Assembly: GCA_036679605.1 (NCBI GenBank)
Contig: JAZDCZ010000347.1
Location: 1 to 64,000, forward strand
Source: Gemmatimonadota bacterium
Lineage (GTDB): Bacteria; Gemmatimonadota; Gemmatimonadetes; Gemmatimonadales; GWC2-71-9
Reading direction: 5' to 3'
Length of the DNA stretch: 64,000 nucleotides
Position numbers and translations under genes: made by a program. The notes beneath the pieces were generated by a model that was given only the letters and a program-made list of their open reading frames with translations, searched no databases and had not been told where the DNA came from. Shown piece by piece: positions 49,740 through 64,000 of the stretch (its first letter is position 1; every line of letters begins with the position of its first letter).

Positions 49740-51038
49740 CTAGTTCCTAGCCCGATACCGCTCGTAAAGCCTCTTGTGCTTGTTGTCCATGTCCACGGGT
49801 CTTCCGTCAATCAGGACGTGAAGGACCTGTGTACGGATCTCCAGCGGATCTCCGTCGGTCACTATGAGGTTTGCGATCTTTCCTTCCTCTACGGTTCCCA
49901 AATCGGCGCCCAGACCGAGGATCTCGGCGGGATAGCGCGTGATCGACTTGATGGCCTCGTCATGTGGCAATCCGAACTTGACCGCATTGGCCGCCTCATA
50001 TGGAAGTGTGCGAGAAGGCGGGTTCGGGCCCGCCGAAGCCCAGCCGGTCATCGCAAAACGTACGCCGCCTTGGTATAACTCGGCCGCATTGTTGAATGCC
50101 CTATAGTAAGGATCGTCCTCAGTCGCAGGCATGTTCTGAGTCGCTCGCAACAACACAGGGATGTCCTTCTCCGCCAGCAACTCTTTTTCCTTCCAAGCGT
50201 CACGTCCGCTCACGAGGATCATTCTCACACCCTGGTCCTCTACAAACTCTACGGCATTGCGGATGTCGCGGGCGTCGTCCGCCAGAATCAACAGGGGAAG
50301 TTCGCCCGACAAGACGGGGATCATCGCCTCGAGCTTGAGATCCCGCGATCGAGTGTTCCCGTCGGCTACTGCGTGTCTATACTCGCGCGCATCTTCCAGC
50401 CAACCACCAAGCTTGGACACGCCATCTCGGTATTCCTTCTGTACTTCCTTAAAAGATCGATTCTCCACGGAGAAGGTTTGGAAGTTGAAGCGTCGCGTCT
50501 GCATACTGGGCCAGTTGAGCACCATGCCGACCGACGGATCCACGATCATCTCCTCGATAGTCCAACCATCCAGGTTGATCGCCGACGCTCGGCCGGCTAT
50601 ACCACCGGCTCCAGTCGAGGGAGCAGCTACCACATGCGTGATACCATTGGCGCGCGTGACCGGGATGCGCTCACTCGCAGGGTGAACCGCCGTTGCAGCC
50701 GACAGCTGGGGATTGAAATCACCCAGTTCGCGGACGTCGTTTGTAACCGTTACAGCGTTGATCTCCTGCAAACCCAGTTGACTGTACGCGTTGAACATGC
50801 CCGGGTATACATGGAGCCCTGATGCGTCGATCACATCAGCCCCAGAAGGTATTGTTACTGCCGCACCGACAGTCACGATCCTGCCGTTGGAAATGATCAC
50901 GGTTCCATTGGCGATCGGATCTCCGACCAGCGTGTGGATCGTGGCACCGCGAATCGCATAAGTAGTACTCTCATCCTGAGCGACCAGAGCCGGGACGAAC
51001 GAAACAACCCCTATAAGTGTCAAGGCGAAGGCTTTCAT
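49740..51038 (-). CDS. Amidohydrolase-family protein, probably non-catalytic (HxH replaced by AYS)
   Basis: Signal peptide; YPGMFNAYS; GTVEEGKIANLIV. Confidence 0.82.
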   Translation of the reverse strand: MKAFALTLIGVVSFVPALVAQDESTTYAIRGATIHTLVGDPIANGTVIISNGRIVTVGAAVTIPSGADVIDASGLHVYPGMFNAYSQLGLQEINAVTVTNDVRELGDFNPQLSAATAVHPASERIPVTRANGITHVVAAPSTGAGGIAGRASAINLDGWTIEEMIVDPSVGMVLNWPSMQTRRFNFQTFSVENRSFKEVQKEYRDGVSKLGGWLEDAREYRHAVADGNTRSRDLKLEAMIPVLSGELPLLILADDARDIRNAVEFVEDQGVRMILVSGRDAWKEKELLAEKDIPVLLRATQNMPATEDDPYYRAFNNAAELYQGGVRFAMTGWASAGPNPPSRTLPYEAANAVKFGLPHDEAIKSITRYPAEILGLGADLGTVEEGKIANLIVTDGDPLEIRTQVLHVLIDGRPVDMDNKHKRLYERYRARN

Positions 51039-53758
51039 CGGATTACCTCCTCTACGCCCTGCGGTTCGGTGGTCACACGGGGCCGTTTGGGCTTCGGCGC
51101 TTTCTCGAGGGCCTTCCTCTCCGCATCGATCGCTCGCTGACGCTCTCGATCGCCGTCAATGTCGAAGTAGAGTTTGCCATCGACGAAAGTCTTTTGCACC
51201 ACTGCAAGGTTATCTAGCGGGTGCCGATCGTAGATGACTAGATCTGCATCCTTTCCAACTTCGATCGAACCGATCGACTCGGCGACACCGAGTTGGCGTG
51301 CCGGATTGATCGTGATCAGCGAGAGTGCCTCTGTCTCCGATAGGCCACCCCACTTGATCGTCTTCGCTGCCTCTTCGTTCAGGTGCCGCATCTCCTCAGG
51401 ACTATCAGAATTTATGGACACCGTCACGCCCTTCTCGGTCATGATGGCGGCGTTGTAGGGAATAGCGTCGTATGCCTCGACCTTGTAAGCCCACCAGTCG
51501 GAAAATGTCGACGCCCCAGCACCATGTTCCGCTATCTCCTTGGCCACCTTGTAACCCTCTAGCACATGCTGGAATGTCGCGATCTTGAAGTCGAACTCCT
51601 CAGCAAGTCTGATTAATTGGAGGATCTCGTCGGCTCGGTACGAATGTGCATGCACGAGCCGCTCTCCCCGCAAGATTTCCGCAAGCGATGCCAGCTTGAG
51701 GTCACGCTGCGGCGGAAGAGCATCCTTACTCCGCGACCCGCGCGCATTGTAGTCATCCCAATCAGCTCGGTATTCCTGTGCTTCGACGAACGCTGCCCGT
51801 ATTACGTCCATCACTCCCATGCGTGTGGACGGGTAACGGTCAGGGTTACGATCGCGCTTCGGGTTCTCGCCCAACGCGAACTTGATGCCGGGCGGGGCAC
51901 CCTCGAGCAGTAGACCATCCGCGTCTGCGCCCCACCGCAACTTGATTACTGCGTTCTTGCCACCTATTGGGTTGGCACTACCGTGGAGGACGTTGACCGT
52001 CGTGACGCCGCCGGCGAGCGCGCGATAGATATTGATATCATCGGGGTTCAAAACGTCTTTGATACCCACCATCGCCGACACCGCAACGCTTCCTTCGTTC
52101 GATCCACCGGCAATGTGCGAATGGGCATCGATGATCCCCGGCATAACGAATTGTCCGGCTGCATCGATGACATTGGCACCGCGTGGCGCCGAGATGTCGG
52201 TCCCAACGGCCGCGATCTTGCCGTTGCGCACGACGACCGAGCCACCCTCGATGGTCCCGTTCGTAACGGTGATGCGGAACGACGGACCAATCAGAGAGCG
52301 TAGCTCTACATCCGAGGACGTGGATTCAGCTTCCTCTTCACCGGTCCCGGTGCTGTCATTCGCATCCTGGGCCCCACGTCGCATTGCCATTCGCCGAGGG
52401 TTCTCGTCGTCGTCGGGCTTGGACTCGAAACGCTCGCCATCGACGAACACCATCTTCACCTTCGTGTCTTCGTCCAGCAAATCACCATTCGTAACCACCA
52501 GGTTTGCGATCTTGCCTGCGTCGAGGCTACCCAAACGATCAGCCGCACCGAAAATCTCGGCTACCGACAGGGTCAGGGCGCGGATCGCGGCGTCGGCGTC
52601 GAGGCCGGCTTCCGTTGCCTTCCGTGCCGCAGCGATTACTTCGGCCGGCCGTTTGATGCCATCCGAATAAAAGGCAAAGCGCACGCCTGCTTCGGCCAGC
52701 CTGGCCGGTGTCGTGGGTGCGAGCAGTCGGAACCGAAGTACCTCTAGTTGAGTGTCGGCCTCAGGATCACCGTCTTCAGGAGCCTTTGGCCAATCGAGGC
52801 TGACCAGCACGGGCAGTTTTAGTTGTGCAAGTAGAGGAGCCACCTCATAACCGCTGTGAAGGCCGTAGATGATCGCCCTCGCGCCAATCTCGTCGGCCGT
52901 ACGGATGGCCCGTTTGATCTCGGTGGCGGTCGAAGCCGGAAACAGCAGTTGCTCTTCTCCGGAGCGAACCGCCGTCAATGGCTCGAGAGCGCGGTCGTAC
53001 GCCGGACGTTCGCGCCCCCGGGGGTCGCTCTCATACCTGGTCCAGGCCTGTGCGTAGTGCTCCGCGTCGAGAAAGATCTGCTTCACATATGCAAATGCAC
53101 CCATTAGAGATGACGGATACCCGCGGTGTCCCCGCCCACCTCTCAAGTTCATTCGGAGTGCGACCGGTGTCTTCACCACCATGTCGTTGGGCCGCTCACC
53201 CGCCAGGTCGATCAGGGCAGCATGCCCCGGAAAGAACCCTCGCTCTGGAGCGGTCACAACCGACGTAAAGCCAGCTTGGCGCCACGTCTGGAGCTGCTCG
53301 TCATCCGGCTGCAGTTGGTCGGCCGCCATCACCCATGTAAAGGTGGCTGGTCGGTCAGCAGGACCACGCGAATAGGGAGAGTCCGCCGCCTGGCCGCCAC
53401 TACCTGCCCCTCCCCCACGCGGGGTAGCTGCACGTCTCACCGCAGGCCCGCTTCCACTCGGACGGGAAAGCCCAAGTGTGGTAAGCCCGTCTATCAAGCC
53501 GGGATAGACCGTAAGGCCGGACCCGTCGATGACCCATGCATCACTCGGGACATCGACCTTCGCTCCAATGGCGGTTATGACACCGTTCTTTAGTACGATC
53601 GTCCCGTTATCGATCGTGCGCCCCGATACTGGAACGAGTCGCGCGTTCTCGATCGCGTAGTGTGAATGGCGACCTGCCTGCTGTGCCACGGCCGGTATCG
53701 GCCCGAGCAGCATGACCGCGGCAACGCACATAATCGATCTCATGCGAAGGTGAAACAT
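51035..53758 (-). CDS. Double-domain secreted amidohydrolase
   Basis: Domain 1 YPGLIDGLT lacks the histidines; domain 2 has PGIIDAHSH, HAHSY, FQH, NSD; ATGA overlap with the next gene. Confidence 0.85.
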   Translation of the reverse strand: MFHLRMRSIMCVAAVMLLGPIPAVAQQAGRHSHYAIENARLVPVSGRTIDNGTIVLKNGVITAIGAKVDVPSDAWVIDGSGLTVYPGLIDGLTTLGLSRPSGSGPAVRRAATPRGGGAGSGGQAADSPYSRGPADRPATFTWVMAADQLQPDDEQLQTWRQAGFTSVVTAPERGFFPGHAALIDLAGERPNDMVVKTPVALRMNLRGGRGHRGYPSSLMGAFAYVKQIFLDAEHYAQAWTRYESDPRGRERPAYDRALEPLTAVRSGEEQLLFPASTATEIKRAIRTADEIGARAIIYGLHSGYEVAPLLAQLKLPVLVSLDWPKAPEDGDPEADTQLEVLRFRLLAPTTPARLAEAGVRFAFYSDGIKRPAEVIAAARKATEAGLDADAAIRALTLSVAEIFGAADRLGSLDAGKIANLVVTNGDLLDEDTKVKMVFVDGERFESKPDDDENPRRMAMRRGAQDANDSTGTGEEEAESTSSDVELRSLIGPSFRITVTNGTIEGGSVVVRNGKIAAVGTDISAPRGANVIDAAGQFVMPGIIDAHSHIAGGSNEGSVAVSAMVGIKDVLNPDDINIYRALAGGVTTVNVLHGSANPIGGKNAVIKLRWGADADGLLLEGAPPGIKFALGENPKRDRNPDRYPSTRMGVMDVIRAAFVEAQEYRADWDDYNARGSRSKDALPPQRDLKLASLAEILRGERLVHAHSYRADEILQLIRLAEEFDFKIATFQHVLEGYKVAKEIAEHGAGASTFSDWWAYKVEAYDAIPYNAAIMTEKGVTVSINSDSPEEMRHLNEEAAKTIKWGGLSETEALSLITINPARQLGVAESIGSIEVGKDADLVIYDRHPLDNLAVVQKTFVDGKLYFDIDGDRERQRAIDAERKALEKAPKPKRPRVTTEPQGVEEVIR

Positions 53759-53897
53759 ATCGCTACTCCAATCTCAAGTGGCGGCGGGATTTGCTGAACT
53801 AGAGTTTTCTATTGAGCTAAAGGTATCATCGGGACGGCAATGTGCGAGTGGCGAGATGCCGGGCGAACTCATTCGGCCTACTTTTCCCGCTTCCCGG

Positions 53898-55577
53898 CTA
53901 CTTGTTAATCTTCCCCCACGTATCCCTCAGACTCACAGTCCGGTTGAACACCAACGCACCGGCCTTGGAATCGACCGGATCGCTGATGAAATACCCCCGC
54001 CGCTCAAACTGATATCGCGTGCCCGGTGCGTCATTTGCGACGCTTGGCTCAATGCGACTGCCATTCAGGACCACACATGACTCGGGATTCAGATAATCAG
54101 TGAATTCCTTGCCATCGTCCGTGGCCTCCGGGTTGGGCACCGTGAAGAGTCTGTCGTACAGGCGCAGTTCGGCTGGCAGTGAGTGCGACGCGGACACCCA
54201 GTGGATGGTCCCCTTTACCTTCCGACCGTCCGGTGTGTTCCCGCCACGCGTCTCGGGGTCGTACGTGCAGTGTACCTCTACGACATTGCCCGCTTCGTCT
54301 TTCACGACGTCAGTGCACGTAACGAGATATCCGTAGCGCAAACGCACCTCCCGCCCTGGAGCTAGCCGGAAAAACTTTCGTGGTGGATCCTCCATGAAGT
54401 CGTCGCGTTCGATGAATATCTCGCGTGTGAATGGAATCCTGCGCGAGCCCTCTTTGGGTACGTCTCGCGGAAAATACGGCGCGTCCAGCTCCTCTGTCTT
54501 ACCCTCGGGATAGTTCGTGATCACTACCTTGAGCGGCTGCAACACACACAGCACACGCGGCACCTGCATGTTCAAGTCGTCACGGATCGCATGCTCCAGC
54601 TTGGCTATATCCACCCGGCTGTCGGTACGCGCAACACCGATGGTATGGCAGAAGTTGCGAATGGCCTCAGGTGTCACACCGCGTCTGCGCAAACCGGCGA
54701 TGGTGGGCATACGCGGATCGTCCCAGCCTGACACACGCTTGTCCTGCACCAACTTCAGCAGTTTGCGTTTGCTCAGGACGGTGTAGTCGAGATTGAGACG
54801 CGCGAACTCGGTTTGTTCCGGAGGACGGTCGAAGCCGACTGCCCTCACCAACCAGTCGTATGGTTCACGGTTGTCCTTGAACTCGATACTGCAAAGCGAA
54901 TGCGTGATACCCTCGATTGCGTCGGAGAGGCAGTGCGCAAAATCGTACAGCGGATAGAGACTCCACTCGTCGCCACGGCGGTAGTGACGGGCATGCCTTA
55001 TCCGTAGGAGCAATGGGTCGCGCATTACCATATTGGCATGACCCATGTCGATCTTCGCCCGCAACACATGGGAACCGTCCGGAAGCTCGCCGCCCCGCAT
55101 TGCCTCCAACAGGGCAAGATTCTCCTCGACTGACCGGTCACGATTAGGGCTGTTGAGTCCCGGCTCAGTTACTGTACCCCTATACTTGCGAATCTCCTCT
55201 TCATTCAGGTCATCGACGTACGCATTACCGTCCTTGACCAGCTTGATGGCAAAGTCGTAGAGTTTTTCGAAGTAGTCCGAGGCATGGTGTTCCCGATCGT
55301 ACCAATCGAACCCCAACCACCGTATGTCTTGCTTGATCGCATCCACATACATCACATCTTCTGTGTGCGGATTGGTGTCGTCGAATCGAAGATTGCACAC
55401 ACCTCCAAACTCAGCGGCGACTCCAAAGTTGAGGCATATTGACTTGGCGTGTCCAATATGCAGATAGCCATTGGGTTCTGGCGGAAACCGCGTCGTCACC
55501 GGCCTACCGTACTTGCCTGATTCTACGTCGCGAGTGATCATCGCGCGTATGAAATCCATGCCTCTCGTATCGACCAT
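53898..55577 (-). CDS. glnS: Glutaminyl-tRNA synthetase
   Basis: TRFPPEPNGYLHIGHAKSI, FDDTNP, VLSKRKL, GWDDPRMPT, EVRLRYGY, KVKGTIHWVS, YQFERRGYF; no YqeY tail. Confidence 0.97.
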   Translation of the reverse strand: MVDTRGMDFIRAMITRDVESGKYGRPVTTRFPPEPNGYLHIGHAKSICLNFGVAAEFGGVCNLRFDDTNPHTEDVMYVDAIKQDIRWLGFDWYDREHHASDYFEKLYDFAIKLVKDGNAYVDDLNEEEIRKYRGTVTEPGLNSPNRDRSVEENLALLEAMRGGELPDGSHVLRAKIDMGHANMVMRDPLLLRIRHARHYRRGDEWSLYPLYDFAHCLSDAIEGITHSLCSIEFKDNREPYDWLVRAVGFDRPPEQTEFARLNLDYTVLSKRKLLKLVQDKRVSGWDDPRMPTIAGLRRRGVTPEAIRNFCHTIGVARTDSRVDIAKLEHAIRDDLNMQVPRVLCVLQPLKVVITNYPEGKTEELDAPYFPRDVPKEGSRRIPFTREIFIERDDFMEDPPRKFFRLAPGREVRLRYGYLVTCTDVVKDEAGNVVEVHCTYDPETRGGNTPDGRKVKGTIHWVSASHSLPAELRLYDRLFTVPNPEATDDGKEFTDYLNPESCVVLNGSRIEPSVANDAPGTRYQFERRGYFISDPVDSKAGALVFNRTVSLRDTWGKINK

Positions 55578-55579
55578 GC

Positions 55580-56977
55580 CTACTTCAGCACCTTTCCGAA
55601 GAACTCTTTCACCTCTGGCACACCACCCTGTAACACGACATAACCGTCGTGTGGTTCGCGATCAGTTATTTCACCGGCGACGGCGGTTGTCATCAACCGG
55701 CGCACCTCGTCTGGACTATCTGGATGTACTCCCAACGCCCAGCCGAGCTTGATATACGCAACTTCCGGCAGCATGTTCGCCAGCGGCACCACCCCTAACT
55801 GCAGTATCTCGCGTCCAGTCTCGTAAACGTGCATCTGCACAAACCCCCACAGAGTCTGCAACGTCATGTATATCTGCACACCTGCGTTCCGTGCTCTCTC
55901 AAGCGCTGGATACATCGCGCGATTTACGTGGCCCAAGCCCGTACCAGCTAATACTATTCCCTTATATCCGCAATCGATCAGCGCGTCGATCACATCAGCC
56001 CGCATTCCCGGGTAGTAGTATGTTAGTGTTACCATATCATCGAATACTGCCTTGATCTCTACCTCAGTGTCGTCACGCCGCGACGCGCAGTCATCTTTTA
56101 GCTGCGTGATCTGCCCCTCCTCTACCATCGCCAGCGGAATGTCGCCCACTGTACGGAAGGTACTTCGGTAGGAACTGTGCATCTTGCGCACACGAGTTCC
56201 GCGGTGCAACAGGTTGTAACAGTCGGAGGTGGGACCGAACATGCACACCATCACCTCGGCGATCGGTCCGTGTGCGGCAGTCCATGTAGCGTTGATCAGA
56301 TTGAGCGCTGCGTCAGATGAAGGGCGGTCAGACGAGCGCTGGCTACCGACGAGAACTACGGGCACAGGAGGCCGCTGGATCATGAAACTGAGCGCTGCCG
56401 ATGTATGATGCATGGTATCCGTACCGTGACCGATCACAACCCCGTCATATCCCGCACGAATCGCTTCTCCAACCCGCTCGGCCACAATCAGATATTGTTC
56501 CGACCCCATGTTTTCCGAGAATACGCCAAACAATTTCTCGGTCTCCAAGTTGCAGATGTCCGCCAGCTCGGGAACCGAGCCATACAGTTCGCCCGGTGTG
56601 AACGCCGGGATCACTGCACCCGTTCTGTAGTCCAACCGCGAGGCGATCGTACCACCCGTCCCGAATAGTTTGACTCGCGGATGCGTCGGATCGAATGGAA
56701 ACTCCTTCTCAGGAATCTTGTAGTTGGCCTGACGGTACCCCAACTCCTCCACCGACTGCACACCGTCGTACCGAACTCCTATGTTGTAGCCGCTCGTCAG
56801 CTTGAGTACAATGTGCAACTCGTCGCTGGTTTCGGAGCGAGGCAACACCAGACCCTCAAACTCACCGCTCGAGGTTCGGATCCTCACCTCACTCCACACT
56901 CCGAAGTTAAGCCTCTTCATGAGATCCAAACATGGGCCGCGATACCCGCGGTAACGCTCCGTAGCAGCAGTGCTCAC
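55580..56977 (-). CDS. gatD: Glu-tRNA(Gln) amidotransferase subunit D (archaeal type)
   Basis: GatD N-terminal domain (EGLVLPR...IVLKLTSGYNIGV), TGGTIASRLDYRTGAV, HGTDTM, GSQRSSDRPSSD, RGTRVRKMHSS; GTG overlaps the gatE TGA. Confidence 0.93.
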   Translation of the reverse strand: MSTAATERYRGYRGPCLDLMKRLNFGVWSEVRIRTSSGEFEGLVLPRSETSDELHIVLKLTSGYNIGVRYDGVQSVEELGYRQANYKIPEKEFPFDPTHPRVKLFGTGGTIASRLDYRTGAVIPAFTPGELYGSVPELADICNLETEKLFGVFSENMGSEQYLIVAERVGEAIRAGYDGVVIGHGTDTMHHTSAALSFMIQRPPVPVVLVGSQRSSDRPSSDAALNLINATWTAAHGPIAEVMVCMFGPTSDCYNLLHRGTRVRKMHSSYRSTFRTVGDIPLAMVEEGQITQLKDDCASRRDDTEVEIKAVFDDMVTLTYYYPGMRADVIDALIDCGYKGIVLAGTGLGHVNRAMYPALERARNAGVQIYMTLQTLWGFVQMHVYETGREILQLGVVPLANMLPEVAYIKLGWALGVHPDSPDEVRRLMTTAVAGEITDREPHDGYVVLQGGVPEVKEFFGKVLK

Positions 56978-58977
56978 GATACCGCCTCTGGCGCCGGTTC
57001 CATTACAACCGCTTCGAGCTTGGTGCGGACGATCATTGGATCCACTTTGCCCAAGAACTTCGGCATGACCTGTCCCATGGCCCAACGAACTAGAGTAGTG
57101 GTTGACCGACCCGGCATCGCCAAAATATCGGTTGCTACATTTCGAACCGCCTCCTCCAACCTATCATCGTCGTCAGTATTACCGCTGTGTCTCAGGATGA
57201 TCTCATCTACCGACACAGCCGGTGAACTGATCGCCATATCGATGAGTCGGTCCAGTGCTTCAATACGAGTCTCGCCGCGCTCAATCGCCCGGACTAGCGG
57301 TCGCGCGCGCTCCGGATCGGGGAGGCCTTGCGGCCTGCCCGCACGCCAGTGGAACGGAAGCCGTTTCGCCAAGGATGCGGCAAGGCGGCGAGCTACGATG
57401 CCGGACTCCGGCTCCACATCATCGAATAGGTCGGCCCACGACGCACGCGCCAGCCGTCTGGCCGAGTCCGCGGTCAGACCCAACTCCATGTAACGACGCT
57501 CCCGCGCCCAAGGAGTTTCGGCTAGCGCGACACGAATAGTTTCTACCAATGAATCTTGAATCGGCAACGGAGGTGTATCGGTGTCCGGATACATCCGCTC
57601 CGCACCCGGAAGAATGCGCTCGAATCCCGTTGTTCCATCAGCATTGGCCTGCCTGGTCTCCGCCGGTACACCGATCAGCGCGTCCGTCGCACGTAGCAAC
57701 ACCTCACGCGCCGCGATCGCTGTATCACGCTCGCTTCCCCAAAGCAGCACTATCGCATCACTACTGTCACCCTTCATTGATTTGCGCAGCTTACTCCACC
57801 TTGATTCAGTCAACATGCTATCGTCGGAATGTGTCATGAACGGCCGGTGGATCGGGCACCCGATCACACGCACTCGCTCGCTCAACTCGTGCGCGAAGTT
57901 TAGTCTCGGCTGTGTGGCATGCGAGAGCAACCCCCCAAAGCCTGGAAGACGTACTGCGCACGCAGTTTCATCTCGATTTACAGCGAAAAGGGTGCGCTCC
58001 ACCAGCTCGGACGCCTCCCACGGTAGACCTTCGTCCGGAATCTCGAGGAGATCGCGCGTTACACCTCGGTGGTCGAGTTCGTTCTTGATTCGCAAGAGGT
58101 TGAGTTGCCGCTGTGCCTCGATGTGAACCAATTGCGGCAGCCTGCGATGGTATGACACCCCCTTGATTTCGACTCTCCGCCCGCCGGCGATGGACACGTT
58201 CACGTCTTGCCGAGCGGCACCCGGCCCCCGTCTTATTTTCCCGGTCGCCCTTGCCACCTCGGCGAGCAACTGCCCTGCCGCCTGTACCTCCAGCGGCGTG
58301 TACAACTCAGGCTCGGTAACGATCTCGGTGAGCGGCATCCCAAGCCTATCCGTGCGGAACGTTATGCGGTGACCGACATCCGAAACTTCGCGACACGAAT
58401 CTTCCTCTAGCGACAGTTGCCGAAGGTGCAGCTCACGGTCGACTCCAAGTTCTGGAATGGTCAAGGGAATAGCGCCACCCAGTGCCACCATCGCGGTCCG
58501 CTGAAAGCCCGTGGGGATCGAACCGTCGAGATACTGTTTGCGCATGACGTGTAGTTCGGACACGAGATTCATCCCCAGCACTTCCGCTAGTTCGATCGCA
58601 ATCCGCACTGCTTCATCGTCGATCTCGAACGGAGGCGTGTCGTCGATCTCATAGGTGCATACCGTTCCGCGTTCCAGCAGGTACACTATTTCCTTTCGCG
58701 TCTTGAACTCCATGAGCGCGGTGCCATCATACTCGCCGAGTTCGCTCAATGTCGGCCGCATGTGGCGAAGAACCTCAGCATCGTGATGGTCGACGTATTG
58801 ACCGGCCGGACAGCGGCAGAACAGCTTGGACCTGGTGAGGAGCTGCTGGTGAACCTCGAGCCCAGCCATGAATCCCAGCGTGTCGTAGTCCGCCCGATCC
58901 AACTCGCCATATTCCTTAATAGGGAAGTCGAGCGCAGGGTCCCGACGGGGGTTCAGTTCTCTCACAATCGTGGTCAT
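56974..58977 (-). CDS. gatE: Glu-tRNA(Gln) amidotransferase subunit E (archaeal type)
   Basis: GLEVHQQL..KLFCRCP, RPTLSELGEYD, DGSIPTGFQRT, LEEDS, DRLGMPL, RQDVNVSI..G.RVEIKGV, internal insertion with HSD, GVPAETR, RMYPDTD, MGQVM. Confidence 0.93.
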   Translation of the reverse strand: MTTIVRELNPRRDPALDFPIKEYGELDRADYDTLGFMAGLEVHQQLLTRSKLFCRCPAGQYVDHHDAEVLRHMRPTLSELGEYDGTALMEFKTRKEIVYLLERGTVCTYEIDDTPPFEIDDEAVRIAIELAEVLGMNLVSELHVMRKQYLDGSIPTGFQRTAMVALGGAIPLTIPELGVDRELHLRQLSLEEDSCREVSDVGHRITFRTDRLGMPLTEIVTEPELYTPLEVQAAGQLLAEVARATGKIRRGPGAARQDVNVSIAGGRRVEIKGVSYHRRLPQLVHIEAQRQLNLLRIKNELDHRGVTRDLLEIPDEGLPWEASELVERTLFAVNRDETACAVRLPGFGGLLSHATQPRLNFAHELSERVRVIGCPIHRPFMTHSDDSMLTESRWSKLRKSMKGDSSDAIVLLWGSERDTAIAAREVLLRATDALIGVPAETRQANADGTTGFERILPGAERMYPDTDTPPLPIQDSLVETIRVALAETPWARERRYMELGLTADSARRLARASWADLFDDVEPESGIVARRLAASLAKRLPFHWRAGRPQGLPDPERARPLVRAIERGETRIEALDRLIDMAISSPAVSVDEIILRHSGNTDDDDRLEEAVRNVATDILAMPGRSTTTLVRWAMGQVMPKFLGKVDPMIVRTKLEAVVMEPAPEAVS

Positions 58978-59098
58978 CGCGGTTGGAATAATAGCGCCGC
59001 CGGCATCGAAAGGCAGGCGGCCCCTCACGTTGACCCACGCACCCCCGCGTCGTACGTTTCGCCCCCACTAGAGAATACGACCCCTTGAAGAGAGATCC

Positions 59099-60409
59099 AT
59101 GACCCAAGTTCGTGTGCGGTTCGCACCATCGCCAACCGGCTTCTTGCATGTGGGTGGGGCCCGGACCGCCCTGTTCAACTGGCTCTACGCCAGAAAGACC
59201 GGCGGCAAGTTCCTCCTCAGGATAGAGGACACAGATCGGCAGCGATCATCAGACGAGCATGTCCAAGTAATTCTGCAGGGACTCGAGTGGCTGGGCCTGG
59301 ACGTGGACGAAGACATTGTCTTTCAAGGGGCGGGAATCGAACGTCATAGGCAACTCGCAGACCGCCTTCATGCCGAGGGCATGGCCTACGAGGATGATGG
59401 GGCGCTACGGTTCCGCATGCCCACCGACGAGATCGTGTGGGATGACGCAGTTTACGAGCGTATCAGCTTCAAGGGCTCGGACATAGAAGACTGGGTAATC
59501 CTACGGTCCAACAGGACACCTACCTATAACTTCACGGTAGTGGCCGACGACCTGGAGATGGGCATCACTCACGTAATGCGCGGTGACGACCATCTCTCTA
59601 ATACTCCAAAGCAGATCGCCGTATATCGAGCGCTGGGACACGAGCCGCCGGTGTTCGTGCACCTACCAATGATCCACGGTCCCGACGGCAAAAAGATGTC
59701 GAAGCGCCACGGCGCTACCGCAGTTGGTGAGTACCGTGCACTCGGCATCCTACCGCCCGCCATGCGAAACTTCCTAGCGCTGTTGGGCTGGAACCCAGGC
59801 GATGATAAAGAACTGTACTTCACGACCGAGGCGCTGATCGATGCGTTCTCGCTCGAACGCGTTCAGAAGAAGGCCGCGATCTTCGATATGACAAAGCTAG
59901 AGTGGATGAATGGACAGTACATGAGTCAGTCGCCGCCGGAGGACCTTCAACCGCTTATCGAGTCGGGATTGAAGGATCACGGAGTCGATAGTACCACTAT
60001 CGAACGCGCTCGCTTGCTGCGCGCGATCGAGGTGACCGCCGAGCGCGCCCGCACCACGATAGACCTGGCCAAACGCGTCGCGGTGCGGTTCAATCCCGAT
60101 CTTATCGTGCACAAAGACCCCAAGGCCCACAAGCTGATTACAAACGATCCTGACGGATTCCGGATGGCGCTCCGTGCCGCCGCCGAGCGGTTGACCGCAT
60201 TGAGCGATGACCGGTGGGAGCCCACAAAATTGGAGACCGAATTGCGAGCACTTGCGGAGGAGCTGGGATTGGGTGTCGGCAAGGTATTTCAGCCGATCCG
60301 CGTCGCTATTACCGGAGAGACCGTTTCCGAGCCGGTGAATTTTCTATTGGAAGTGGTTGGAAAAGAAGAGAGTCTCAGACGGATGGCGGCGGCACAGGAC
60401 TGGTGCTAG
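59099..60409 (+). CDS. gltX: Glutamyl-tRNA synthetase
   Basis: RFAPSPTGFLHVGG, LRIEDTD, PTYNF, HVMRGDDH, KMSKRHG, LLGW, and an anticodon-binding domain (PIRVAITG). Confidence 0.96.
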   Translation: MTQVRVRFAPSPTGFLHVGGARTALFNWLYARKTGGKFLLRIEDTDRQRSSDEHVQVILQGLEWLGLDVDEDIVFQGAGIERHRQLADRLHAEGMAYEDDGALRFRMPTDEIVWDDAVYERISFKGSDIEDWVILRSNRTPTYNFTVVADDLEMGITHVMRGDDHLSNTPKQIAVYRALGHEPPVFVHLPMIHGPDGKKMSKRHGATAVGEYRALGILPPAMRNFLALLGWNPGDDKELYFTTEALIDAFSLERVQKKAAIFDMTKLEWMNGQYMSQSPPEDLQPLIESGLKDHGVDSTTIERARLLRAIEVTAERARTTIDLAKRVAVRFNPDLIVHKDPKAHKLITNDPDGFRMALRAAAERLTALSDDRWEPTKLETELRALAEELGLGVGKVFQPIRVAITGETVSEPVNFLLEVVGKEESLRRMAAAQDWC

Positions 60410-60449
60410 GTGGGGCTACTGTTGGGCCGCACTGGGATAGCTCCCGCAT

Positions 60450-60839
60450 CTACAAGATCTGCCGTGTCACCATTTTCCTGCGGCACTGGGTACAGTGAAT
60501 TCGGCGCATCGCAACACCCTGCCTGACGATAGCAGGGCCCAGCATAAGATTACCCTCGCATTCCGGACACCAAACCCCCGCTCCGGGATGCGACATCATA
60601 CGCCGTACCAGAGACGCCGCCTCCAAAGAGTATATAGCCTGGGGCGGGCGTCTTCGCTCCGGCGAAGCGCGTCGATCCTGAACATTTCGGCGCTCGGCCA
60701 CCACAGCATGCTGAGCCGTGACTTCACCACCGCGTCGATCTAACGCATGGCGGCGGTCGTCTGAGGATCGGATGTCTCGAATAAACCTGCGCACTGCACG
60801 GCCCTGTAGTTCCTCGAGCAACTCATTCACTGGATGCAA
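60450..60839 (-). CDS. Hypothetical protein with repeated (D/E)RR motifs and a zinc ribbon
   Basis: GGAG RBS; DDRR..DRR..ERR..DRR..ERRR; CPEC...CTQC. Confidence 0.6.
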   Translation of the reverse strand: MHPVNELLEELQGRAVRRFIRDIRSSDDRRHALDRRGGEVTAQHAVVAERRNVQDRRASPERRRPPQAIYSLEAASLVRRMMSHPGAGVWCPECEGNLMLGPAIVRQGVAMRRIHCTQCRRKMVTRQIL

Positions 60840-61098
60840 GATTCACTCCTGTCGTGCCTGCATTTAGCTTGATCCCAAACCCGGTGCGATCGAACGTGGC
60901 TGCATATAGTAACGAAAATACAGGTCCTCCCAATAGCATGTGGCCTGGAGTTGAGATGTTGCCGAGATGAAAAGTGTACTGGAAGCGGCCAGGGCGCCAC
61001 CTATTGGAATTCCTGGATCGGTGTGTGCGTGACGACTGCAGCCATTCCCAGCCTCAGGCCAGGAACGGCGTTCTCAAGTACGCGCCTCTTCGGACTGG

Positions 61099-61590
61099 CT
61101 AGCCCAAAAGGCCGTGATCACGCAGAGATTGCCGTAGAGCAGGGCGGGCACGCCATAGGTAGTAGCCCATGCAGATCGCCGCAATGAGATTTCCGACTGC
61201 TACGTTGGCCCACGCCAATGCGGCCAGCAGAGGAGTGAACATCAGCGCAACTACTCCATTGAACCCGAATTCGAACACGATGAAGAACTCGATCAACAAC
61301 CACAGCGCACCAGGAGATTTCTCAGCCTCGGCGATCATGGCGGAAGCCACAGTGCCAACGAAGAGAAAGACGAGTACGTGCATTGCCGTATACATAGAAA
61401 CAGACTGGAAGCTGATGCTGACCGTTGCGGGGTCGCGAAGCCCAAAGAACACAGCCGACCCCAAAACAGCGGGGGTAAAAAACGGTCGGCCCGCTATCAC
61501 GTCGACAATGAGAAACCAACCCGCCACCGCGCCCGCCCCAATCAGGCCAGCGATGAACCCTTCCCGTACAATACGTTGGCGTGTCAACAT
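61099..61590 (-). CDS. Hypothetical four-TM membrane protein
   Basis: Four hydrophobic segments, PFFTP motif; start overlaps the narK stop. Confidence 0.7.
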   Translation of the reverse strand: MLTRQRIVREGFIAGLIGAGAVAGWFLIVDVIAGRPFFTPAVLGSAVFFGLRDPATVSISFQSVSMYTAMHVLVFLFVGTVASAMIAEAEKSPGALWLLIEFFIVFEFGFNGVVALMFTPLLAALAWANVAVGNLIAAICMGYYLWRARPALRQSLRDHGLLG

Positions 61591-63152
61591 GGGATCTCAG
61601 CTTTCTTCCGAGCGTAGAACCACCAATTCACAGCAAGGCAGGTCACATAGTAGCCGGCGAAGCCGTACAATGCATACTCGGGCGTGCCCGCCGATATCTG
61701 CCCACCGAAAATACGCGGAATCAGAAAGGCGCCATACGCCGCCACCGCCGATGTCCAGCCGAGCACGGGGCCGGCGAATTCCGGCTTGAAGATGATCGGG
61801 ATCATGCGGAAGGTCGACCCGTTACCGATACCGGTGGCTATGAATAGCACTAGGAATAGGAAGAAGAATGGCCACCAATACGCTTCCGGCGTCGCTGTGG
61901 CCCCTGCCGCCTTGACAAAGTAGGCTACGCCAAGCGCCGAAGCAATCATGATCACGGTATCCCAGTGTGTCACACGGGCACCACCGAGCTTGTCCGAAAG
62001 CCACCCTCCCACTGGCCTCACTAGCGACCCAACCAACGGGCCCAACCAGGCATATGCAAGTGGATTCGGTGCGTTGGGATTGAGCGAACCGTCGGGAAGC
62101 GAGCCGAATACATCCTGGATGAGTTTGGGAAACGCCGCCGAGTATCCGATGAAGGATCCAAAGGTCATCGTGTAGAGCCACGTCATGACCCAGTTGTGTT
62201 TCTTGCGAAAAATAACGAACTGGTGAACCAGGTTTTCGCGGACTGGGCCCGGCGTCACATATCGCATCACAAGTAGTGTGACGCAAATGGTTATGGCGAG
62301 CACGGCAAACACCTTCACCAGATCTGGAAGTCCGAATGTTGGGCCTAGCAGCAAGCCGATGCCAACTGCAGCCCCAAACAAACCCAACGTTTCGAGCCAT
62401 AGCATCTTCCCAATGGCGACCGATGCTGGCCCAACTCGATGCATCGGCAGGTTGTTCATGAAGAGAAACGCCAGCACGGAGAACACTGCAAGTGCCGGCA
62501 CCCAGATCAACCCGCTGTTCTGGATCCAGATAGTTGCGCCACCGAGTTCCGCCGGCAACTGGCTACCGTCACCGCTCAGTGCTCCGAACACGGCGAATGT
62601 CATCACCCACGGCAGGAGCACCTGCATCACGCTCACGCCGAGATTCCCAAGGCCGGCGTTCAAACCGAGCGACAGCCCTTGCATCCGTTTCGGAAAGAAA
62701 AAGCTGATATTCGACATTGACGAAGCAAACGCACCTCCGCCGAAGCCACTCAGAGCCGCAAGTAGAGCGAAGATCGTATAACTCGTCTGCGGACTCTGTA
62801 GGGCAACGCCGACGCCGGCTGCAGGCACAATCAGGAGCGCGGTCGTCACCGCAATGACGTTTCGCCCACCTGAGATAGCGATCATGAACGAATTGGGAAT
62901 CCTAAGTGTCGCGCCTACGAGTCCAGCGATGGCGGGAAGCGTATACAGCTGGGTCTTGGAGAAACTGAACCCTAGATTCTCCATTTGTACAATGATGATG
63001 GACCAATAGAGCCAGATCGCAAATGCGAACAGGAGGCACGGTATCGAAATCAAGAGATTTCGAAACGCGATCTTGCTACCGCGGCTCCGCCAGAACTCGT
63101 TCTCCTCTACCTCCCACTCTACGATCGCACCACGGTGCTGTACACCGGACAT
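61584..63152 (-). CDS. narK: NarK/NasA-family nitrate/nitrite MFS transporter
   Basis: WEVEENEFW, GFGGGAFASSMSNISFFFPK, GLGNLG, TFGSFIG, GIGNGSTF. Confidence 0.93.
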   Translation of the reverse strand: MSGVQHRGAIVEWEVEENEFWRSRGSKIAFRNLLISIPCLLFAFAIWLYWSIIIVQMENLGFSFSKTQLYTLPAIAGLVGATLRIPNSFMIAISGGRNVIAVTTALLIVPAAGVGVALQSPQTSYTIFALLAALSGFGGGAFASSMSNISFFFPKRMQGLSLGLNAGLGNLGVSVMQVLLPWVMTFAVFGALSGDGSQLPAELGGATIWIQNSGLIWVPALAVFSVLAFLFMNNLPMHRVGPASVAIGKMLWLETLGLFGAAVGIGLLLGPTFGLPDLVKVFAVLAITICVTLLVMRYVTPGPVRENLVHQFVIFRKKHNWVMTWLYTMTFGSFIGYSAAFPKLIQDVFGSLPDGSLNPNAPNPLAYAWLGPLVGSLVRPVGGWLSDKLGGARVTHWDTVIMIASALGVAYFVKAAGATATPEAYWWPFFFLFLVLFIATGIGNGSTFRMIPIIFKPEFAGPVLGWTSAVAAYGAFLIPRIFGGQISAGTPEYALYGFAGYYVTCLAVNWWFYARKKAEIPC

Positions 63153-63216
63153 CTCGGTCTCCTTAGTTACTTCTGTTGACGACTAGGGTGGAAGCTCATC
63201 GATAACGCCGAGTGAT

Positions 63217-64000
63217 CTAGTTCCTGCTTGCTGCCGTCGCCATGTCATGTACCATGGGTCCATCAGCCTCGATTGCAGTCGCCAGCCCCGGAGCAGCCGC
63301 ATGCAAAATGCGTCGAACGACTACAGTCAGCCAGACGAGGCAGGCAATCGACACGGCGAAAAGAAACATCCAGGTAGTAGTCCACAATCCGAATCCGTCG
63401 AGCATGTAGCCGAAGACGATGGGACACACGAAACCACCGAGGCCACCTAGCACCCCTACAAGACCGCCGACCACACCGACATCATCTGGGAAGAAGTCAG
63501 GGATGTACTTGTAGACAGCCGCCTTCCCGATACCCATAGCGATGCCGATTATGAAGACCAACGCCGTAAAGATCCACACGTTGGCTTGGAAATAAATGTG
63601 CGTGACACCACGAGCAACAAGTTGCTTCTTGCTAACCGGGTCCCCCACATCTACGATCGGTTCCTGCCACGTGGTGATAACGGGAAGGACTAGCGCCTGA
63701 CTCTCGGTGTATGTTTTGAGCGCGTCGCCGTTAGCTTTGAGTGGGTAGTCTCGGTCATCAATCGTAATGACGTCGGCCGACACGTCAGTTACTGTGCCCG
63801 CACGCGCGGCCATCACACCACGTCCCGGTGATTCGATGTCCATTTTCGGAAAGATCAACAGCAGACAACAAACAGCAATGACGGAGAGAACAGAATAAAG
63901 GACTTTCCGGGGCCCAACCAGATCCGACATCCATCCGCCCAGCGCGCGGATGAGACTTGACGGGAGTGAAAAGATGGACGTCATCAACCCGGCCATGATG
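63217..64000 (-). CDS. narK: NarK-family MFS transporter, 5' end outside the window
   Basis: RALGGWMSD, MGIGKAAVYKYIP, GGLGGF; frame is open to the window edge. Confidence 0.82.
   Translation of the reverse strand, partial: IMAGLMTSIFSLPSSLIRALGGWMSDLVGPRKVLYSVLSVIAVCCLLLIFPKMDIESPGRGVMAARAGTVTDVSADVITIDDRDYPLKANGDALKTYTESQALVLPVITTWQEPIVDVGDPVSKKQLVARGVTHIYFQANVWIFTALVFIIGIAMGIGKAAVYKYIPDFFPDDVGVVGGLVGVLGGLGGFVCPIVFGYMLDGFGLWTTTWMFLFAVSIACLVWLTVVVRRILHAAAPGLATAIEADGPMVHDMATAASRN

Follow-up and report, generated by a model that had tools for sequence, protein, structure and literature searches.

Organization of the locus and identity of its genes

The present analysis concerns a gatE-gatD gene pair on a 64,000-nucleotide stretch of DNA from a Gemmatimonadota bacterium (positions 1 to 64,000 of contig JAZDCZ010000347.1, assembly GCA_036679605.1; the whole stretch is called the window below). 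[quoted passage not shown] In the window the pair is followed by glnS, and gltX is transcribed divergently from it (Table 1). The gatD start shares the letters GTGA with the gatE stop and 2 nt separate the gatD stop from the glnS start, i.e. the intact genes, the overlap and the close spacing reported in the first-pass annotation of this stretch agree with our coordinates, and the distance to gltX, given there as about 120 bp, was measured as 121 nt. A sigma-70 consensus was not found in this spacer, and a promoter and terminator scan remained at chance level.

Table 1. Features of the gatDE locus, in window coordinates.
Feature	Position	Strand	Description
gatE	58977..56974	-	ATG start, TGA stop, 667 aa; kinase/transamidase subunit of GatDE, bacterial-clade type
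gatD	56977..55580	-	GTG start, TAG stop, 465 aa; glutaminase/asparaginase subunit, GatD_N domain
glnS	55577..53898	-	ATG start, 559 aa; ordinary bacterial GlnRS, no YqeY tail
gltX	59099..60409	+	ATG start, 436 aa; short bacterial GluRS
spacer gatE/gltX	58978..59098	no strand	121 nt between divergent starts; presumed shared promoter region

Profile searches against NCBIfam identify the two proteins as true GatE and GatD rather than GatB and an ordinary asparaginase. GatE passes the archaeal-family cut-offs of TIGR00134 (479 bits, cut-off 456) and PRK04028 (421 bits, cut-off 319.6) and stays below those of the GatB models (at most 151 bits, cut-off 338), while GatD passes those of TIGR02153 (gatD_arch; 491 bits, cut-off 324) and PRK04183 (488 bits, cut-off 310). 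The Pfam domains of GatD are GatD_N (PF18195), Asparaginase and Asparaginase_C; the protein thus has an N-terminal domain and a type I asparaginase core, in which the motifs GGTIAS, HGTDT and RKMH are kept. The best PDB matches are archaeal GatDE structures, 2d6f_C and 1zq1_C for GatE and 1zq1_A for GatD (E 5e-116). The AlphaFold (AF2) model of GatE has a mean predicted local distance difference test score of 91.9, its top Foldseek matches are 1zq1 and 2d6f, and the cradle, insertion, helical and tail domains are all present (GatE residue numbers below refer to a 668-residue query that begins one residue ahead of the start Met). The synthetases are of bacterial type: GlnRS scores 733 bits with TIGR00440 (cut-off 426) and matches GlnRS structures in the PDB, and GluRS scores 444 bits with the bacterial-type model TIGR00464 (cut-off 290).

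The GC content of the four genes, overall and at third codon positions (GC3), is like that of the neighbouring genes. A 12,216-base Logan contig spans window positions 50026-62193 with zero differing letters, although both could derive from one sample, so that it does not count as independent. Independent support against a chimera is provided by other genomes, where the same gatE-gatD pair is found in 68 of 70 informative loci, so a chimeric junction, which the first-pass annotation had named as a possible refutation, is not borne out. The nearest named relatives are Gemmatimonadales.

Two amidohydrolase-family genes lie downstream of glnS on the same strand (49740-53758), and two membrane genes that by eye resemble nitrate/nitrite transporters lie past gltX (61584-63996). 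Neither pair recurs beside gatDE elsewhere.

The host genome

The host genome (G000) is a metagenome bin, 96.5% complete and 6.3% contaminated. The GatB/GatE domain occurs in it only once, in the window gatE itself. A genome-wide search did not find gatB, and gatA was not found either, i.e. no amidase passes the cut-off (best match 196 bits, cut-off 481). The first-pass annotation had pointed to gatCAB, asnS, glnA and a second gltX as the genes to look for. Besides the absence of the amidotransferase genes, we found AsnRS, AspRS and LysRS, two glutamine synthetase family genes, three strong AsnB-family genes, and only one gltX and one glnS (tblastn). The tRNA-Asn genes on contigs C81 and C334 have a U1-A72 pair. 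Contig C343 (155 kb) is rich in additional tRNA genes (Met, Asn, Glu, Gln) at approximately 50000-116000, together with a second glutamine synthetase family gene; a mobile element or contamination could account for this.

The gatE-gatD pair is widespread among uncultured bacterial phyla

Scanning GTDB genomes with the window GatE yielded at least 538 related stretches, and a second scan with distant members at least 599. The best 80 of each were inspected; the two scans overlap and do not amount to a census. The best 80 of the first scan are all labelled as bacterial (Gemmatimonadota, Eisenbacteria, Krumholzibacteriota, Acidobacteriota, Planctomycetota, Myxococcota, deltaproteobacteria, Ignavibacteria, Marinimicrobia, Bacteroidota, Aminicenantes), and in those of the second Zixibacteria, WOR-3, Caldisericia, Fermentibacteria and Chlorobi are also represented, along with two archaea of the Thermoplasmatota. 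All bacterial carriers among them are metagenome-assembled genomes (MAGs), including single-contig and megabase-contig genomes. GatDE is real in this bacterium, as first claimed, but it is not a one-off: the gatE-gatD pair is widespread among uncultured bacterial phyla. Within the host phylum it is patchy, as gatD is present in 16 of 301 sampled genomes. Carriage by phages or plasmids was considered and rejected, with none out of 14 pattern matches in viral contigs and, for plasmids, a single haloarchaeal record.

The order of the two genes is highly conserved. Among the best 80 of the first scan, gatD follows gatE in 68 of the 70 loci with room for it, in 64 cases within 300 nt, but glnS comes right after gatD in just 3 of the 50 loci with room for it. 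The recurring neighbours within the host lineage are glnS and gltX; apart from aminoacyl-tRNA synthetase (aaRS) genes, no third neighbour recurs beside gatDE across phyla. The glnS operon with a divergent gltX, which the first-pass annotation had put forward, is thus present here and local to some Gemmatimonadota, and what is general is co-occurrence at the genome level. Two variants of the pair were also seen. At one locus (L029:8968-9933) a 255-aa open reading frame that by eye resembles the Asp/Glu racemase family lies between gatE and gatD, and a 969-aa protein (P0036) has GatE, GatD_N and asparaginase domains in a single chain, possibly a GatE-GatD fusion or an assembly read-through.

Co-occurrence with GlnRS, AsnRS and GatB

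For co-occurrence we selected 50 of the first scan's best 80 carrier genomes for spread and longer contigs. GlnRS is present in 48 of them (47 matched, 46 of these over the cut-off, and G086, where glnS is cut by the contig end) and AsnRS in 49. GatB is whole in 26, split in 2 and missing in 22; gatB is also absent from the single-contig carrier G036. No other amidotransferase was found in the host genome or in the 22 carriers without GatB. The link to GlnRS is also visible against non-carriers. Among 61 kin genomes of the host, glnS is found in 9/9 with gatE and in 14/52 without it, and in the phylum sample GlnRS is found in 14 of 16 carriers (15 including the cut copy) versus 125 of 285 non-carriers (Fisher p 0.001). 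These samples share some genomes, the kin genomes are not independent of each other, and two unpublished genomes, G015 (kin) and G177 (phylum), were counted as non-carriers, although neither is the sole basis of any conclusion. In the GluRS tree, 12 of the 13 members of one kin clade carry GatDE, so the association within the family is not independent. Carriers without GlnRS do exist: G068 (which has two gltX and gatB), G070 (2.6 Mb), G224 and G427 (with gatB). One kin genome, G008, rated 100% complete on 340 contigs, has no GatB, GatE or GlnRS match, probably because of an assembly gap.

A missing glutamine synthetase was considered as a reason for having GatDE and rejected, as a family match is present in 80 of 80 genomes searched (weak matches only in the carriers G067 and G071). 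The same count weakens the earlier suggestion that GatDE supplies tRNA-dependent glutamine.

Phylogeny of GatE and GatD

In trees with archaeal homologues, proposed in the first-pass annotation as a check, the bacterial copies form a clade of their own beside Asgard archaea. The 41 bacterial GatE sequences form this single clade with FastTree support of 1.0, and the phyla are intermixed inside it. In an LG+C20 tree of GatE (35 of 98 sequences) the bacteria fall together with Loki-, Njord- and Heimdallarchaeia, with full support, and Euryarchaeota, TACK, DPANN and Thorarchaeia stand outside this group (all tree supports are from the Shimodaira-Hasegawa-like approximate likelihood ratio test, SH-aLRT, only). 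The GatD tree (33 of 72 sequences) and a joint tree (22 sequences) agree with this grouping. Sequence columns point the same way, with 12 uniting bacterial GatE with the Asgard copies against other archaea and 3 doing the opposite. The sister of bacterial GatE is a Heimdall paralogue (supports 90, 81 and 97 in three trees), one of the two GatE paralogues found in 5/5 Heimdallarchaeota checked, while GatD prefers Loki (support 90). The second Heimdall GatE (L230-L234, where gatE and gatD are in tandem) is placed with Loki GatE, and its branch is very long (1.4-2.4 changes per site), as if freed from constraint.

Two Thermoplasmatota GatE proteins stand at the base of the bacterial clade. They are the sole GatB/GatE match in their genomes (bins of 1.4 and 1.1 Mb), both of which have an archaeal GluRS, and in one genome GlnRS lies within a tRNA-Gln cluster. 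In that cluster (L510:8454-10646, G425) glnS is flanked by tRNA-Gln(CTG), tRNA-Gln(TTG), tRNA-Glu and a gene like tRNA-Gln whose anticodon loop is shortened (marked '???' by ARAGORN). At locus L509 a glutamine synthetase-like gene comes directly after gatE.

GlnRS of bacterial type is also found in 6 of 8 Heimdall genomes (5 whole, 1 split) versus 0 of 42 other archaea. A passing mention of GlnRS in Heimdallarchaeia is made in a bioRxiv preprint (10.1101/2024.07.04.601786), and according to a passage of PMC5388404 none was present in the archaea analysed there. The core of the Heimdallarchaeota GlnRS (L236:1180-3105 in G379; L237:1183-3105 in G377) is nested among bacterial GlnRS and is preceded by an N-terminal extension that resembles the one in the archaeal GluRS of these genomes. 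The tRNA-Gln of these hosts is A1-U72, which is said not to be charged by known GlnRS.

The root was placed differently by two methods. With bacterial GatB as outgroup (five or four sequences) FastTree roots the tree at the bacterial stem, with no support, and the mixture model favours a root that separates canonical archaea from the bacteria-plus-Asgard group (91/86); archaeal monophyly gives p = 0.438 in the approximately unbiased (AU) test and hence is not rejected. The simplest account of these trees is likely one transfer from the Loki/Heimdall part of the Asgard archaea, which would have been followed by spread among bacteria. That bacterial GatDE would be a relic of the last universal ancestor rather than a product of transfer, which the AU result does not reject either, seems improbable to us.

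GatE residues and base pair 1-72 of tRNA-Gln

The catalytic part of bacterial GatE is strongly conserved. The Mg-coordinating residues of GatE are His15, Glu157 and Glu184 (PMC2330236), and their equivalents in the window protein (H44, E192, E219), together with R257, are the same in all 41 bacterial sequences; the identity of the cradle among bacteria is 0.70. The insertion (approximately residues 311-437) aligns with that of archaeal GatE, is confidently modelled and has weak Foldseek matches to AspRS; the Pfam GAD domain has no match in the window GatE but is listed for some relatives. In archaea this insertion lets GatDE bind GluRS and excludes AspRS (PMC2943598).

The tail and the presumed first-pair contacts are different. 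A GXXAXGX tail motif and a conserved, positive short loop have been described as features of GatE, and the loop is positioned at the first pair of the tRNA (PMC2811023). The window GatE has TTLVRWAMG in place of the tail motif, and the conserved GLGTIRQD of the loop is changed (RRGPGAARQD versus archaeal KRGLGTIRQD). Altogether eight GatE columns are conserved in archaea and altered in bacteria. Most striking among them is Gln at position 240 of the Methanothermobacter (Mt) protein (position 276 of the bacterial GatE), found in 57 of 57 archaeal but 0 of 41 bacterial sequences; it is also missing from all of 80 additional loci of the bacterial clade. In work of Oshikane from 2006 this Gln is said to contact the first pair; a literature search on Gln240 returned nothing relevant.

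Archaeal GatDE recognises A1-U72 (PMC2330236, PMC9499178) and is poor on bacterial Glu-tRNA(Gln) (PMC2943598). The 1-72 pair that the first-pass annotation had singled out is of the bacterial type in the host, as 4 of 4 tRNA-Gln genes have U1-A72 and not the archaeal A1-U72. In 12 other bacterial carriers it is U1-A72 in 18 of 18 tRNA-Gln genes, which makes 22 of 22 with the host. A1-U72 tRNA-Gln was not found in bacterial carriers among hand-picked pattern candidates (G066 had no true match and G001 was excluded), in contrast to 8 Heimdall and 3 Loki-group tRNA-Gln, which are A1-U72. As every tRNA-Gln checked in bacteria has the same pair, the idea that GatDE serves one tRNA isoacceptor receives no support.

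Partner synthetases

The window GluRS lacks about 45 residues in the insert of the catalytic domain, a short form shared by numerous kin genomes, whether or not they carry GatDE. It is also the form present in two kin genomes, G011 and G021, where it must be non-discriminating because GlnRS is absent there. The anticodon domain of the window GluRS has an Arg that is also present in kin whose GluRS must be non-discriminating, so specificity cannot be judged from this residue and the attempt was rejected as uninformative. A special GlnRS in GatDE carriers was also considered and rejected: the columns of the glutamine pocket are canonical and invariant, no column separates 27 GatDE-positive from 17 GatDE-negative GlnRS, and the two sets interleave in the tree. 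In AspRS the loop position is Leu (RRDLGG-type) in 30 of 31 genomes including the host (exception G084), and not His, which we take to be the mark of a non-discriminating AspRS; a literature search on the AspRS His/Gly marks gave nothing relevant. Complex prediction with GatE (28-474) and GlnRS (6-556) gave a score of 0.00, which speaks neither for nor against binding.

Proposed function and alternatives

Judging from sequence and genomic context, we lean, by a narrow margin over doubt, towards bacterial GatDE being a Glu-tRNA(Gln) amidotransferase (Glu-AdT) with relaxed recognition of the first pair, which would repair or supplement the output of GlnRS. We envisage that the GluRS of the cell, probably descended from a non-discriminating enzyme, still loads some Glu onto tRNA-Gln. 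GatE would phosphorylate this Glu, and GatD would release ammonia from Gln or Asn to give Gln-tRNA(Gln); archaeal GatDE uses Gln and Asn about equally (PMC2330236). The main flux would run via GlnRS, while GatDE might clear mischarged tRNA or top up the supply, possibly from Asn if Gln is short, and it could substitute for GatCAB where this has been lost, as in the host. The reading of the first pair would have been loosened or changed so that the bacterial U1-A72 tRNA is accepted, if this is what the changed residues mean. The active-site signatures recur in the GatE of Lokiarchaeia, where GlnRS is absent, and are hence in keeping with a role on Glu-tRNA(Gln). The interpretation in the first-pass annotation survives in its core, i.e. 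GatDE beside GlnRS with a backup or proofreading role as the best reading, but the pair is not a one-off, the glnS operon is local, the isoacceptor idea receives no support and that of a glutamine supply is weakened. With a little less than even confidence we further propose that the subfamily is a companion of GlnRS that crossed the domain border more than once, given its presence in Heimdall archaea, Thermoplasmatota and many bacterial phyla, and shed the need for A1-U72, so that direct and indirect routes to Gln-tRNA(Gln) would coexist in one cell, for quality control or for Asn-fuelled glutamine coding, a route that none of the literature searched describes.

Several observations weigh against a repair or supplementing role. 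Whether the window GluRS mischarges tRNA-Gln is not readable from its sequence, and the tRNA-binding tail of GatE is less conserved in bacteria than in archaea (0.25 versus 0.36). A clean-up enzyme would be redundant in the 28 of 50 carriers that also keep gatB, and two kin genomes (G029, G037) have GlnRS and no amidotransferase, i.e. GatDE is dispensable in the group. An efficient Glu-AdT should sometimes replace both GlnRS and GatCAB, yet only G224 (95% complete, 130 contigs) looks so. Finally, the Thermoplasmatota GatE has no Gln240 although the tRNA-Gln of its genome is A1-U72, so there was no simple switch to U1-A72; this suggests a first-pair specificity that is relaxed rather than switched.

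Among the alternatives, the enzyme may have been repurposed, keeping its chemistry, in which a carboxylate carried by an aminoacyl-RNA or the like is amidated at the expense of ATP, with a substrate other than Glu-tRNA(Gln) for translation, so that the GlnRS link would reflect a shared niche or lineage. The near universality of direct synthetases in carriers would fit this, as would the altered tail and presumed first-pair contacts, the unusual conservation of GatD among bacteria (62-85% to the window protein) and the presence of the Heimdall sister copy as an additional paralogue. We hold it to be rather unlikely, since only aaRS genes recur as neighbours across phyla (glnS and gltX in the host lineage) and since a bacterial-clade GatE is the sole GatE in two archaea that need Glu-AdT, although these genomes are incomplete. 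An Asp-tRNA(Asn) amidotransferase making Asn on the tRNA, like GatCAB in the GlnRS- and AsnRS-containing Bdellovibrio and Deinococcus, would have the advantage of being the documented role of an amidotransferase (AdT) beside these two synthetases (PMC4206432); the host tRNA-Asn is also U1-A72, and AdTs disregard the anticodon (PMC2330236). This is quite unlikely given that the AspRS-blocking insertion of GatE is kept, that the host has its three AsnB-family genes, and that the AspRS loop carries Leu and not His, if the latter mark means what we assume.

GatDE might also be a physical partner of GlnRS that corrects Glu mis-loaded by GlnRS itself, which is the only beta-barrel-type GlxRS of the bacterium, like the non-discriminating GluRS (ND-GluRS) bound by archaeal GatDE. 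The co-occurrence with GlnRS in three settings (bacteria, Heimdall archaea and one Thermoplasmatota genome), the tRNA-independent binding of archaeal GatDE to its own GluRS (PMC2943598) and the translational-coupling distance between gatD and glnS here speak for such a partnership. It appears very unlikely in view of the fully canonical GlnRS pockets, which do not tell carriers from non-carriers, the rarity of adjacent glnS and the GatDE genomes without GlnRS (G068, G224, G427). A mildly useful or near-neutral passenger, whose link to GlnRS would merely mirror the phyla and sub-lineages carrying it, would agree with the patchy distribution in the phylum and with the non-independent GluRS kin clade, but it is highly improbable, as active sites are invariant and pairs intact over many phyla and the association with GlnRS is seen again in archaea, which otherwise lack this enzyme. 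An assembly or binning artefact, with archaeal DNA placed in the bin of a bacterium, might be suspected from the contamination of the host bin and from the listed bacterial carriers all being MAGs; we regard it as refuted, because the pair lies between bacterial gltX and glnS on a single contig with uniform GC3 and depth, it occurs in single-contig and megabase-contig genomes, and the bacterial copies are a clade of their own.

Comparison with known systems

Up to 2022 GatDE was described as archaea-specific (PMC9499178, PMC8007984, PMC2811023), as also assumed in the first-pass annotation; that description was current, but the enzyme is present in many bacterial phyla. A report of bacterial GatDE was not found in our literature search, which covered mostly open-access papers and did not extend to supplementary gene tables. 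NCBI and JGI pipelines name many such proteins GatE, so the fact is already in the databases. According to PMC4206432 no bacterium was known with both routes to Gln-tRNA(Gln). Neither the archaeal signature nor the separation of the enzymes holds for this subfamily: GatDE occurs in many bacterial phyla, and in bacteria as well as in some archaea it coexists with GlnRS. The operation of both routes in one cell, the identity of the residues that read the first base pair and the presence of GatDE in the last universal ancestor thereby become testable, and the subfamily points to transfer of a translation enzyme from Asgard archaea to bacteria. On the practical side, gatD and gatE are unsafe as archaeal markers in metagenomes.

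The proteins are members of the GatD and GatE families, while the pathway lacks two features of the archaeal route, namely A1-U72 and the absence of GlnRS. With archaeal GatDE (M. thermautotrophicus 2D6F, P. abyssi 1ZQ1) they share both subunits, domain order, fold, insertion domain and the Mg-binding and glutaminase motifs. Unlike the archaeal enzyme, the bacterial copy lacks Gln240, has an altered GLGTIRQD loop and a weaker tail, its host has GlnRS, AsnRS and U1-A72 tRNA-Gln, and the GluRS that partners it belongs to the helical type of bacteria and not to the archaeal type. Bacterial GatCAB beside GlnRS and AsnRS, as in Bdellovibrio, Deinococcus and Thermus, is likewise an amidotransferase retained despite direct synthetases, but it makes Asn-tRNA(Asn) and is a different enzyme (PMC4206432). 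The nearest relatives in the GatE, GatD and joint trees are the GatDE of Lokiarchaeia/Promethearchaeia, Njord-, Jord- and Heimdallarchaeia, with RKxYLDGSxP and YPDTD among the 12 shared columns. Asgard GatDE differ in keeping Gln240 and in serving A1-U72 tRNA-Gln, in Loki without GlnRS, and the Heimdall sister copy differs in being a second paralogue whose gatD is divergent from gatE.

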